IMG/VR virus record: IMGVR_UViG_3300008954_000002 | Coordinates: 1 to 64,000 of that record | Origin: a virus | Length of the DNA: 64,000 bases | Strand: one strand, 5' to 3' | In this document: positions 61,613 through 64,000 of the stretch, piece by piece | How positions within the stretch are numbered: position 1 is the first letter of the stretch | How the letters are laid out: each line of letters begins with the position of its first letter | Made by a program: the position numbers and the translations under genes | The notes under the pieces: model-generated | The model's database searches: none | Told to the model about the DNA's origin: nothing | The model's input: only the letters and a program-made list of their open reading frames with translations

Positions 61613-62269
61613 ATGGGAATAAAGAAAATAACAGGCATTCCTGAAATAGACACTATAGCTAACGCCTTATCTAAGAAGTTTGGTGGCAAGGAAGTGCTTA
61701 CTCTTGGCCCAAGAATTAAAGAGGCCAACCCAATCCCTACAGGCTCTCTATCTCTAGACTGCCAACTAGGTATAGGCGGAATACCAGACGATAGAGTAAT
61801 AGAGCTGTTCGGCCCATCCTCAGCCGGGAAAACCTCCTTAGCCCTACAGTTTATGCGTCAGTACGTAGACACTAGAGGATATGATCGCCCCCCTGCCTTT
61901 ATTGATCTAGAAAGAACTACTGGACTAGATCTTATACAGGGCATGGGTATAGACCCTGATAGAATTCTATTCTGCTATCCAGATACAGCTGAAGAAGCAC
62001 TACAAATAGCTGCTGACCTAGGCCGTAGTGGTCAAGTAGGCATGATTATATTCGATTCAGTAGATGCGGCTCAGTCTGAGAAAGAGACTAAGAGACAAAT
62101 GGATGAGCTTGGTGTTGGCGATCTACCGAGAGTAATGTCAAAAGCACTAAGAACTATATCCAAGATAGCTACAGACAATAAAGTTGCTTATATCTTCATA
62201 AATCAAATCAGAATGAAGATCGGTTGTGTTGCTCCAGATACTAACATAACCTGGCGACAAGTTGACTAA
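61613..62269 (+). CDS. recA: RecA N-terminal half fused to a 14-aa split-intein N fragment
   Basis: [47 protein letters not shown]. Confidence 0.9.
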   Translation: [218 protein letters not shown]

Positions 62270-62290
62270 GTTGATTTATAGTACTATCCT
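62262..62290 (+). promoter_or_regulatory. sigma70-like promoter for the endonuclease/IntC-RecA unit
   Basis: TTGACT - 17 bp - TATCCT; ATG 62297 near the expected +1. Confidence 0.45.
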
Positions 62291-62296
62291 ATATAT

Positions 62297-63166
62297 ATGA
62301 AAAATATATGCAGAGTTTGCTCAACCCGAATAGAGCAATCTAAAAAATACTGTTCAAGAAGCTGTTATCATACAAGTCGCAAAGGCATACCTAGATCAGA
62401 GTCTTTTAAAGAAAAAATAAAGCTTGCTCTTATCGGCAAACCACTTTCTCAAGAGAGAAAAGATAAAATAGGCTTAGCTAATTTAAAAAAAGAAGATTTG
62501 TATATAGAAGAACTTAAGTACCTTTGGTCCATAAGATATATTCAAGACTATTATGCAGTAAAAAGCCACATGAACTTTCCCCATTCTTTAAGAGTCTACA
62601 ATAGACTAAGGAAGAAATATGCAAGCTATCTTATAGAGTGCAAGCCCATCTCCCATCTCCCTGTTACCCTTCAAAAAATGAAAACAGAAAGATGGGAACA
62701 ACTACTTCTTGATCTTAAAACAATGAGAACAAGAGCAGTTTTGGCTAAATGGAGAATAGGCGAAAAAACCATTCGGAGAATTTTAGAAGCCTATTCACTT
62801 CAATGGATCTCAAGCTCTAGACGCTATGGTCAAGAAACCTCAATAGAAAAAACAGTGAGGATATGGCTTCAAAAGCAGGAAGTAGAATTTACACAAGAGT
62901 ACTCTCTTGGCTCTTACTTTTATGATTTTAGAATAAGAAATTTACTTATTGAAGTTCATGGGGACTACTGGCACTGTAATCCTCAGATCTATAACGAGCC
63001 GATATCAGCTACTCAAAAACGAAACCTCATAAACGATAGCCTTAAATTTTCATTTGCCTCTAAAGAGAATTACGAAGTTTACTATATTTGGGAATATGAT
63101 TTAAAAAGAAATACTCAAGCTGAGTTAGATAAACTCAAGGACAAAATAAATGAACTCAACAATTAG
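62297..63166 (+). CDS. Free-standing Vsr/DUF559-like homing endonuclease with Zn finger and NUMOD3-like repeats
   Basis: CRVC..YCSRSC, SE..K.KI, TSIE, YDF..LIEVHGDYWH, IWE.D. Confidence 0.8.
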   Translation: MKNICRVCSTRIEQSKKYCSRSCYHTSRKGIPRSESFKEKIKLALIGKPLSQERKDKIGLANLKKEDLYIEELKYLWSIRYIQDYYAVKSHMNFPHSLRVYNRLRKKYASYLIECKPISHLPVTLQKMKTERWEQLLLDLKTMRTRAVLAKWRIGEKTIRRILEAYSLQWISSSRRYGQETSIEKTVRIWLQKQEVEFTQEYSLGSYFYDFRIRNLLIEVHGDYWHCNPQIYNEPISATQKRNLINDSLKFSFASKENYEVYYIWEYDLKRNTQAELDKLKDKINELNN

Positions 63167-64000
63167 CGAGCTTTTCTTAGCGCTAGGGCACCCACAAGAA
63201 AACCTTGTAGAGGACTCTCCAGTAGATGTCAAAGATAAAAACTTTGAGATAGAGAGCTTCGATTTTAGCACAAACCAAAACACTTGGAAGAAAATCTTAA
63301 CAATAGTTAAGAAACCAAAAACAAAAGCCTATATTGTATCCGCAGAAAGTAGGGCCTTTACTTGTTCACCAAATCATAGAATAGCAATATCTCTAGATAA
63401 AGACCTAACAGGTCTACATTTTGTTGAAGCATCTGAATTAGTTTCATTTAAGAAACCCTTTTATTGTAAAACTCCTAAAGGTTTAGTACAAGCATCTGTA
63501 GTTCAGACAGGCAAAGAAACCAATATTCTAGATATAGAAGTAGAAGATACTCATTCTTACTACTCTAACGGAATACTTTCTCATAATACTCTTTATGGCA
63601 ATCCAGAGGCTACATCGGGAGGAAATGCCCTACCCTACTATAGCTCTGTACGCCTTAGAGTAACTTCTAAAGCATCTCCTACACAGAAAGATGCCTTGAG
63701 TATGAAAGTAAGAGTAGTAAAGAATAAAATGGCCCCTGCTTTATCAAAGCAAGCAGAATTTACTTTCATATGTGCACAGGGCACAGATATATACGATGAT
63801 ACATTTGAATTTGCTAAGTCTATTGGCTTAATAAGATCTGCAGGCTCTGCAGTAAAAATTACAATGCCGGGTAAAGAAGAAGAGACATTATGTACTGGAG
63901 GAAAGCTTGGCGCAAGACAGCACTTTATTGAAAATACAGAATACTTTGAACAAATTAGACAGGCCTGCTATAGTATTTCAGGGCTTACCCCGTCAGACTC
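63150..64000 (+). CDS. recA: Split-intein C fragment (146 aa) fused to RecA C-terminal half; runs off the window
   Basis: AAGGA RBS and ATG 63150; CSPNH, LDIEVEDTHSYYSNGILSHN|TLYGNPEATSGGNALPYYSSVRL..VVKNKMAP. Confidence 0.9.
   Translation, partial: MNSTISELFLALGHPQENLVEDSPVDVKDKNFEIESFDFSTNQNTWKKILTIVKKPKTKAYIVSAESRAFTCSPNHRIAISLDKDLTGLHFVEASELVSFKKPFYCKTPKGLVQASVVQTGKETNILDIEVEDTHSYYSNGILSHNTLYGNPEATSGGNALPYYSSVRLRVTSKASPTQKDALSMKVRVVKNKMAPALSKQAEFTFICAQGTDIYDDTFEFAKSIGLIRSAGSAVKITMPGKEEETLCTGGKLGARQHFIENTEYFEQIRQACYSISGLTPSD

Follow-up and report, generated by a model that had tools for sequence, protein, structure and literature searches.

How can a phage obtain a whole recombinase from a recA gene that is broken in two? 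The question is raised by the last part of the window, i.e., the stretch of 64,000 nucleotides (nt) analysed here, which represents positions 1–64,000 of the uncultured virus record IMGVR_UViG_3300008954_000002 (161,098 bp, with direct terminal repeats and rated 100% complete). There, recA is distributed over two open reading frames (ORFs), ORF1 and ORF3, with a further frame, ORF2, between them. An earlier note on this DNA had proposed that the gene is fractured by a naturally split intein with an N-terminal fragment (IntN) of 14 amino acids (aa), and the anatomy of the locus, profile searches, a predicted fold and the colinearity of the exteins all support this proposal. On this sequence and model evidence, we consider it highly likely that positions 62225–63587 (1,363 bp, inside the L2-loop codons of recA) constitute a composite selfish element: a mini-intein, split at the so-called S1 position and interrupted by the gene for an EDxHD-type endonuclease, would reside in the only recA of the phage, and RecA would be restored by protein trans-splicing.

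The two RecA pieces and an element-free allele

When compared with the Pfam RecA profile (262 positions), ORF1 matched positions 5–197 (E = 8e-46), and the C-extein encoded by ORF3 matched positions 194–260, the profile resuming where the ORF1 match stops. A more precise delimitation was afforded by L002, a related phage contig that encodes a single, intact RecA of 366 aa and whose ORFs upstream of recA resemble those found upstream of recA in the window. By BLASTP, the N-extein aligned with residues 1–203 of the L002 protein (73% identity), while the alignment of the C-extein started at residue 204 (66% identity). The exteins abut at residues 203/204 of this RecA, with nothing lost, gained or duplicated, and such exact colinearity identifies L002 as an element-free allele and sets the limits of the inserted element at the coordinates given above. 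The sole change at the junction with respect to L002 is the replacement of Val by Thr at position +1, which supplies the nucleophile required by the intein.

Both intein halves lie on separate ORFs, each fused to its own extein: ORF1 ends with a TAA just after IntN, and ORF3 begins with an ATG at the C-terminal intein fragment (IntC). The first 146 residues of ORF3, corresponding to IntC, terminate in DIEVEDTHSYYSNGILSHN, after which the remainder of the frame opens with TLYGNPEATSGG (C-extein start, TLYGNPEATSGGNALPYY). No RecA-like stretches other than the ORF1 and ORF3 pieces were found in the complete 161,098-bp genome. Because these are the only RecA pieces available, and because the break falls inside L2, a DNA-binding loop of RecA (PMC3239194), the unjoined halves are unlikely to work.

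Upon re-reading the ORFs from the sequence, the coordinates previously assigned to the three frames proved exact, including those of the separate ORF that had been said to carry a 146-aa IntC ending in SHN-T and the rest of RecA (Table 1).

Table 1. Features of the recA locus (positions in the window; ORF3 continues beyond position 64,000 of the record)
Feature	Coordinates	Strand	Length	Description
ORF1	61613–62269	+	218 aa	RecA-N (204 aa) plus IntN (14 aa); stop TAA
recA N-extein	61613–62224	+	204 aa	Walker A region to L2-loop residues ..INQIRMKIG
IntN	62225–62266 (TAA to 62269)	+	14 aa	Read directly off the sequence
Spacer, IntN stop to endonuclease start	62270–62296	+	27 nt	
ORF2, free-standing homing endonuclease gene (predicted)	62297–63166	+	289 aa	EDxHD/Vsr-like
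ORF3	63150–64064	+	304 aa	IntC plus RecA-C; extends past the window end
IntC	63150–63587	+	146 aa	MNSTISELF...GILSHN; helix 1, blocks B, F and G
recA C-extein	63588–64000 in the window	+	158 aa	Starts with Thr+1; runs to 64061, stop at 64062–64064 outside the window

Identity and split position of the intein

The codon for Cys1 (62225–62227) directly follows the ..KIG of the N-extein, and this cysteine is conserved in all homologues. IntN consists of a conserved 10-residue core, CVxP[DE]Tx[IV]x[VWY], and a 4-residue tail; the core is kept in about 18 homologues, split and contiguous alike. IntC contains the motifs CSPNH (block B), ILDIEVEDTH (block F) and SHN (block G), the last being followed by Thr+1. 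Residues S73, H76, D128, H145 and N146 of IntC are invariant in the family alignment (A2), and the H, D and SHN are likewise invariant in an alignment of 19 sequences (A3).

Residues 116–146 of IntC were matched by the Pfam family Intein_splicing, and IntC alone retrieved the gp41-1 and Spl DnaX mini-inteins in a phmmer search against the PDB. With a profile of the intein family, dozens of solved inteins were matched, with E-values down to 5e-11 (Spl DnaX and gp41-1). A word-indexed search of a protein library for longer, fused IntC proteins gave none, but this proved to be a false negative when IMG/VR was scanned with the IntC profile: the scan yielded contiguous RecA homologues with inteins of 159–176 aa at the same site (L031–33, L038, L042 and L034).

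One of these contiguous homologues, L031, was modelled with AlphaFold2 (AF2) from the 19-sequence alignment. The model was a HINT domain, with a predicted local distance difference test score (pLDDT) of 93 and a predicted template modelling score of 0.86. It gave 65 PDB matches at E ≤ 0.001, the top ones listed being inteins and the related BIL/Hedgehog HINT domains, and its best fold matches were the inteins of Pho RadA and Npu DnaB and VidaL (6vgv). According to DSSP, the model begins with a hairpin (strands 12–17 and 20–25) followed by a helix (26–32). When the window intein is placed on this model through alignment A3, IntN extends from Cys1 across the first hairpin strand into the turn, and the start of IntC falls three residues ahead of helix 1. 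In the predicted structure, the split is located at the S1 position, i.e., between the first strand of the N-terminal hairpin and helix 1. Judging from its sequence motifs and from the predicted HINT fold of this homologue, the core of the element is a class-1 mini-intein.

The endonuclease gene and its expression signals

The ORF2 product comprises an N-terminal Cys4 motif (C5, C8, C20 and C24), a helical middle and a C-terminal nuclease domain (approximately residues 180–289) in which we could recognise D210, E219, G222-D223, H226 and D247. Searches at the level of the single protein were uninformative, as Pfam returned nothing, PHROGs gave weak matches and a single-sequence search of the PDB found no match. 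An exhaustive search, in turn, collected 3,315 library cluster representatives at E ≤ 1e-3. In an alignment of 42 sequences, D210, E219, G222, D223, H226, Q240, W265 and E266 were invariant and D247 was at least 90% conserved; the D/H/D residues align to D51, H69 and D97 of Vsr. The profile made from these 42 sequences matched the catalytic domain of I-Bth0305I (3r3p, E = 1.1e-9) and E. coli Vsr (1cw0, E = 3.3e-6). An AF2 model of the enzyme (pLDDT 94) gave the same two structures, 1cw0 and 3r3p, as top Foldseek matches, with template modelling (TM) scores of 0.77–0.78 on the target and root-mean-square deviations of 2.6–2.9. By profile and predicted fold, ORF2 encodes a homing endonuclease of the EDxHD/Vsr-like family, which bears out the earlier suggestion of a Vsr-like, free-standing endonuclease between the recA halves. 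Its closest relatives (33–46% identity) are found in the same recA arrangement wherever flanking sequence was recovered.

ORF2 is in the same frame as ORF1, from which it is separated by the TAA and, five codons on, by a TAG. The frame of ORF3 differs from that of the endonuclease, and the ORF3 ATG (63150) lies within the last 17 nt of ORF2. A Shine-Dalgarno-like AGGA occurs 7–10 nt upstream of ORF1 and an AAGGA motif 8 nt upstream of the ORF3 ATG, while no Shine-Dalgarno motif is found before the endonuclease start in the 27-nt spacer. The endonuclease had been credited with its own sigma70-like, probably leaderless promoter. The spacer does contain a −35/−10-like match (9 of 12 consensus positions), but eight such matches were found in the region against 7.1 expected from shuffled sequences, and the corresponding spacers of the relatives (2–69 nt) share no motif; a dedicated promoter is thus neither supported nor excluded by these data. 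RNA folding around the IntN/endonuclease junction revealed no significant structure (z = +0.5). The simplest reading of these signals would be a single operon in which the endonuclease is poorly translated. The 27-nt spacer also includes a perfect 10-nt palindrome, ATAGTACTAT, at 62279–62288.

Conservation of the arrangement

The order RecA-N–IntN, EDxHD gene, IntC–RecA-C, with insertion at KIG-T, was observed in at least 12 diverged metagenomic lineages from independent assemblies. The sources were 12 ENA GROS21 contigs, two Logan assemblies, JGI and ATLA15 contigs, and at least eight IMG/VR lineages. In these relatives, the gap before the endonuclease measures 2–69 nt, and in most lineages the 3′ end of the endonuclease gene overlaps the start of IntC by 17–38 nt. 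All their IntC ORFs possess a conserved Met, 2–6 residues ahead of helix 1. Identity between the IntC fragments of different lineages is only 25–50%, yet the Ser and His of block B, the Asp of block F and the His-Asn of block G are unchanged throughout. Such conservation of the arrangement across lineages argues for function.

Thr+1, regarded at first as uncommon, is not an oddity within this intein family, where it is near-universal (L024 has Cys). The length of IntN at the KIG-T site varies by a few residues, from 13 aa (L019) through 14 (window, L035, L039), 15 (L030, L045), 16 (L023, L029, L040, L055) and 17 (L013, L022, L024) to 18 aa (L025–28).

The comparison of L013 with L039 indicated that non-synonymous divergence in the intein pieces does not exceed that in the RecA exteins: the proportion of non-synonymous differences (pN) was 0.22 for IntC and 0.22 for the RecA C-extein, and one of the 14 IntN residues differed. 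The proportion of synonymous differences (pS) was about 0.75; since synonymous sites are saturated, we give only pN and pS rather than a true ratio of substitution rates (dN/dS). In L030 (2284–2508) and L039 (2125–2403), the endonuclease is reduced to remnants of 75 and 93 aa, respectively, and both intein halves are intact. Decay of the nuclease with retention of the intein halves is what one would predict for a host that depends on splicing but not on the nuclease.

Proposed mechanism and alternative explanations

In the mechanism that we propose, three proteins would be made, probably from one transcript: RecA-N–IntN, the endonuclease and IntC–RecA-C, translation of the last being possibly coupled to that of the endonuclease through the 17-nt overlap. 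The 14-residue IntN would dock into the incomplete HINT fold of IntC, whereupon Cys1 would undergo an N–S acyl shift and the acyl group would move to the hydroxyl of Thr+1. Cyclisation of Asn146, followed by an O–N shift, would finally release a RecA of 362 aa with the junction KIG-TLYGNPE. The endonuclease, for its part, would cut the intein-less recA of co-infecting relatives, and repair would copy the whole cassette into them; the intein-less recA of L002 is a candidate substrate.

A number of considerations weigh against this interpretation. Trans-splicing, its efficiency, and the activity and target of the endonuclease are all inferred. The fold test relies on L031, which is contiguous and 30% identical to the window IntC. 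Of the two hairpin strands, IntN has the first alone and IntC just 3–4 residues of the second, so that the association of the two fragments could be weak. Moreover, the absence of a Shine-Dalgarno motif makes expression of the endonuclease uncertain.

One may suppose that the locus is simply dead, i.e., that insertion of the endonuclease gene ruined a contiguous intein, that the recA halves are never joined and that the phage uses the host RecA or some other recombinase. A 14-aa IntN is indeed very short, phages can lose recombinases, and the lack of a visible ribosome-binding site for the endonuclease fits the picture. However, all three ORFs are intact in the window and in at least 12 lineages diverged to 25–50% identity; the catalytic residues are invariant and the pN of the intein equals that of the RecA exteins, whereas a dead gene would have decayed; and what L030 and L039 have lost is the endonuclease, not the intein halves. 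Inteins split at the same position are, besides, known to be active (PMC13014065). We therefore consider a defunct locus improbable. No less improbable is that the intein halves only dimerise, holding the RecA halves together without splicing. Non-covalent assembly of this sort is documented for the endonuclease-fractured NrdA of an Aeromonas phage (PMC3045599), and two relatives, L025 and L045, also carry an intein-less recA fracture beside a second EDxHD gene. Yet docking alone would need none of the residues that are invariant here (Cys1, the block B His, the block F Asp, His-Asn and Thr/Cys+1), and an unspliced domain of 160 aa would stay within the L2 DNA-binding loop.

Repair at the RNA level, with the endonuclease ORF inside a group I intron whose splicing restores a contiguous intein, deserves mention because EDxHD endonucleases do occur in group I introns of recA at nearly the same codons (PMC2677866, PMC3239194). 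We rejected a group I intron, as there was no Rfam match at E ≤ 10 in 61000–64000 and the fold of the 5′ junction was not significant (z = +0.5, as above). Furthermore, the flanks outside the ORFs amount to 27 nt and −17 nt, too little to accommodate an intron core, and the IntC ORFs of the relatives all start with their own conserved Met. This makes RNA-level repair highly improbable. There is finally the concern, voiced in the earlier note, that the stop codons are sequencing or assembly errors in one contiguous maxi-intein, to which a single metagenome-derived record is open in principle. Against this, ORF3 and the endonuclease are in different frames, IntN is followed by two different stops (TAA and TAG), the ORF3 protein is recorded on two contigs, and a 98%-identical endonuclease fragment is a separate cluster representative in the protein library. 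The same layout in many independent assemblies likewise means that the stops are not sequencing errors; these observations rule such errors out, and we regard the chance of an artefact as negligible.

Comparison with known systems

The closest parallels to the split intein are VidaL and PolB16, two natural splits at S1 that are active in vitro, with IntN fragments of 16 and 15 aa, respectively (PMC13014065, PMC10189870). In general, natural atypical IntN pieces measure 15–37 aa, and PolB16 has been called the shortest characterised (PMC10189870, PMC13014065). The expectation that 14 aa would be at or below the shortest IntN is therefore correct in so far as the window fragment is one residue below the characterised record, but it is not extreme in public data, in view of the IntN of 13 aa in L019 and L043 and of 11 aa in L044.

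VidaL (PDB 6vgv/6vgw), from Lake Vida metagenomes, is cysteine-dependent like the window intein, has an IntN of 16 aa instead of 14, and is reported to be fast in trans-splicing (PMC13014065). Compared by eye, the start of its IntC, MIEEKKVTVQELRELY (PMC10264447 supplement), and that of the window, MNSTISELFLAL, both show a Met and a few residues followed by an xxELxxL helix. Its crystal structure ranked fourth among the fold matches of the L031 family model (TM 0.79 on the target). In sequence, VidaL is a distant relative: 6vgv matched the family profile with E = 2.4e-4, far behind gp41-1 and Spl DnaX (about 6e-11). Engineered VidaL constructs have Ser+1 after SHN, whereas the window intein has Thr+1. 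The Lake Vida data reportedly also yielded ‘UvsX’ split inteins, which our literature search did not confirm; in that case, a recombinase gene would already be on record as a host.

The PolB16 OarG intein (PDB 8cpn; Pasch et al. 2023, PMC10189870) is also a natural S1-type split, and a synthetic version of its IntN has served in semisynthesis. It differs from the window intein in that it begins with Ser1 (it is cysteine-less), resides in a PolB host and has a dispensable block B His, whereas the window family has an invariant Cys1 and an invariant block B His; its match to the family model is weaker (rank 40), and its IntN is one residue longer. Despite the same fold and split site, the window intein is probably a lineage independent of VidaL and PolB16. 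At the same structural position, an 11-aa IntN supports efficient trans-splicing in the engineered, S1-split Ssp DnaB M86 (PMC13014065); this intein was artificially split and evolved and is not a natural gene arrangement, although its fold is related to that of the window family (6frh).

The gene organisation recalls the fractured genes of Dassa et al. 2009 (Dassa, London, Stoddard, Schueler-Furman, Pietrokovski). There, phage DNA-metabolism genes are divided into two ORFs, each with an intein half, with overlapping ORFs and an intervening free-standing homing endonuclease gene that is Vsr-like in half of the loci (PMC2677866). As far as the same text goes, recombinases appear as a neighbouring ORF (UvsX) or as recA with group I introns, neither of them as a fractured host (PMC2677866). 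The split in the window is not at the canonical insertion point of the endonuclease domain; it lies near the N-terminus and leaves pieces of 14 and 146 aa. The fractured loci described before are said to be split at the canonical site, with an IntN of about 100 aa and an IntC of about 40 aa.

Concerning the endonuclease, the best profile match in the PDB was I-Bth0305I from Bacillus phage 0305phi8-36 (PDB 3r3p; PMC3239194), which has the same catalytic residues as the window enzyme. I-Bth0305I, too, resides in a phage recA, where it cuts at the L2-loop codons F-G-D-P, within about ten codons of the window insertion site (PMC3239194). It is carried by a group I intron, whereas the window enzyme is carried by a split intein; the two share about 21% identity in the nuclease domain, and the N-terminal Cys4 motif is present in the window enzyme, unlike in I-Bth0305I. 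When the I-Bth0305I target, TTxG-N6-CxAA, was compared by eye with the YGNPE codons of the intein-less allele, four of the six specified positions agreed, and we claim no target on this ground.

We found no published description of this recA split-intein family in our literature search. Each ingredient (fractured genes, S1-split inteins and an I-Bth0305I-type endonuclease) is already published, so the conceptual novelty is low and the locus is a genuine new example of a known arrangement. Its main use may be as a protein-ligation tool, the window pair being of moderate practical interest as a source of a very short natural IntN. Protein engineers value short IntN fragments, since these are accessible to peptide synthesis and hardly enlarge the tagged protein. 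The family as a whole provides a series of natural candidates of the Cys1/Thr+1 type, with IntN lengths of 11–18 aa, plus contiguous relatives for comparison, and its inteins may be orthogonal to VidaL and PolB16. We would tentatively suggest, at somewhat less than even chances, that the window pair is an efficient natural trans-splicing intein with an IntN shorter than any characterised, and that the family reveals the S1 loop as a second recurrent landing site for free-standing endonuclease genes. Gene types of both the EDxHD and the GIY-YIG class occupy the S1 gap in this family.

Neighbouring sites, tandem copies and other loci

In the L2 loop, a stretch of about nine codons contains three sites at which inteins of this family are found, namely, KIG-T, G(N/S)PE-T and PETT-T. 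L043 (514–3391, GSPE-TT) and L044 (435–2961, GNPE-TT) contain homologous split inteins, whose IntN fragments of 13 and 11 aa were mentioned above; here the S1 gap holds a GIY-YIG endonuclease gene, not an EDxHD one. In L045 (259–3045), only about 30 nt, devoid of an endonuclease gene, separate the IntN stop from the IntC ATG.

Some recA genes carry two family inteins, seven residues apart (L034; L025–28). In L034 (1694–5045), a contiguous intein at KIG-T is followed seven residues on by an S1-split second copy, which has a 15-aa IntN, CVSPDTKIKVRRRNV, and a 359-aa EDxHD gene in the gap. The recA of L025–L028 is in four pieces (e.g., L025:570–4881) and includes two S1-split inteins with the 7-residue extein TMYGDPT between them; the second IntN is about 28 aa long, and the IntC ORF comes next, without an endonuclease in between. 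Further downstream in L025–28 and in L045, recA is also interrupted by a second EDxHD gene that is not accompanied by an intein; in L025–28 this interruption occurs at TTPGGE. The recA ends broken in this way bear short extra tails, MIASLVRV in L025 and LLASLARA in L045.

A single host loop thus displays contiguous mini-inteins, endonuclease-split and endonuclease-decayed forms, tandem copies and intein-less fractures, examples that, seen side by side, illustrate stages on the route along which endonucleases and inteins have been proposed to combine and separate. In the intein tree, contiguous and split forms are interspersed; for example, L037 (contiguous) is sister to L043 (split), with support of 95/92. 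Because the tree is poorly resolved (8 of the 17 inner branches are open), we claim no order or direction of the split and fusion events.

Close to the site discussed here, L008 (2969–4549, in a 355-kb IMG/VR phage) encodes a 526-aa RecA with a contiguous mini-intein at VMFG-SPE, three residues downstream of the window site. This intein resembles the window family only in the C-terminal splicing blocks and adds to the occupants of this loop.

Two further observations concern other genes. In the window itself, a 1393-aa frame (the ribonucleotide reductase ORF) contains an insert at 57947–58153 (+ strand) that matches the family of endonucleases in the recA gap (E = 2.4e-5). The match covers only the N-terminal Cys4/DNA-binding part (profile positions 6–70), without the nuclease domain, and the insert could represent either a remnant or a DNA-binding module borrowed from elsewhere, within a ribonucleotide reductase intein. 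In addition, dozens of IMG/VR loci (L047–L104) have an EDxHD-type gene just upstream of, and often overlapping, a large ORF of about 330–750 aa. These ORFs start with an IntC-like region of 100–150 aa and have no RecA domain, which suggests that atypical intein splits are widespread in phage genes other than recA.

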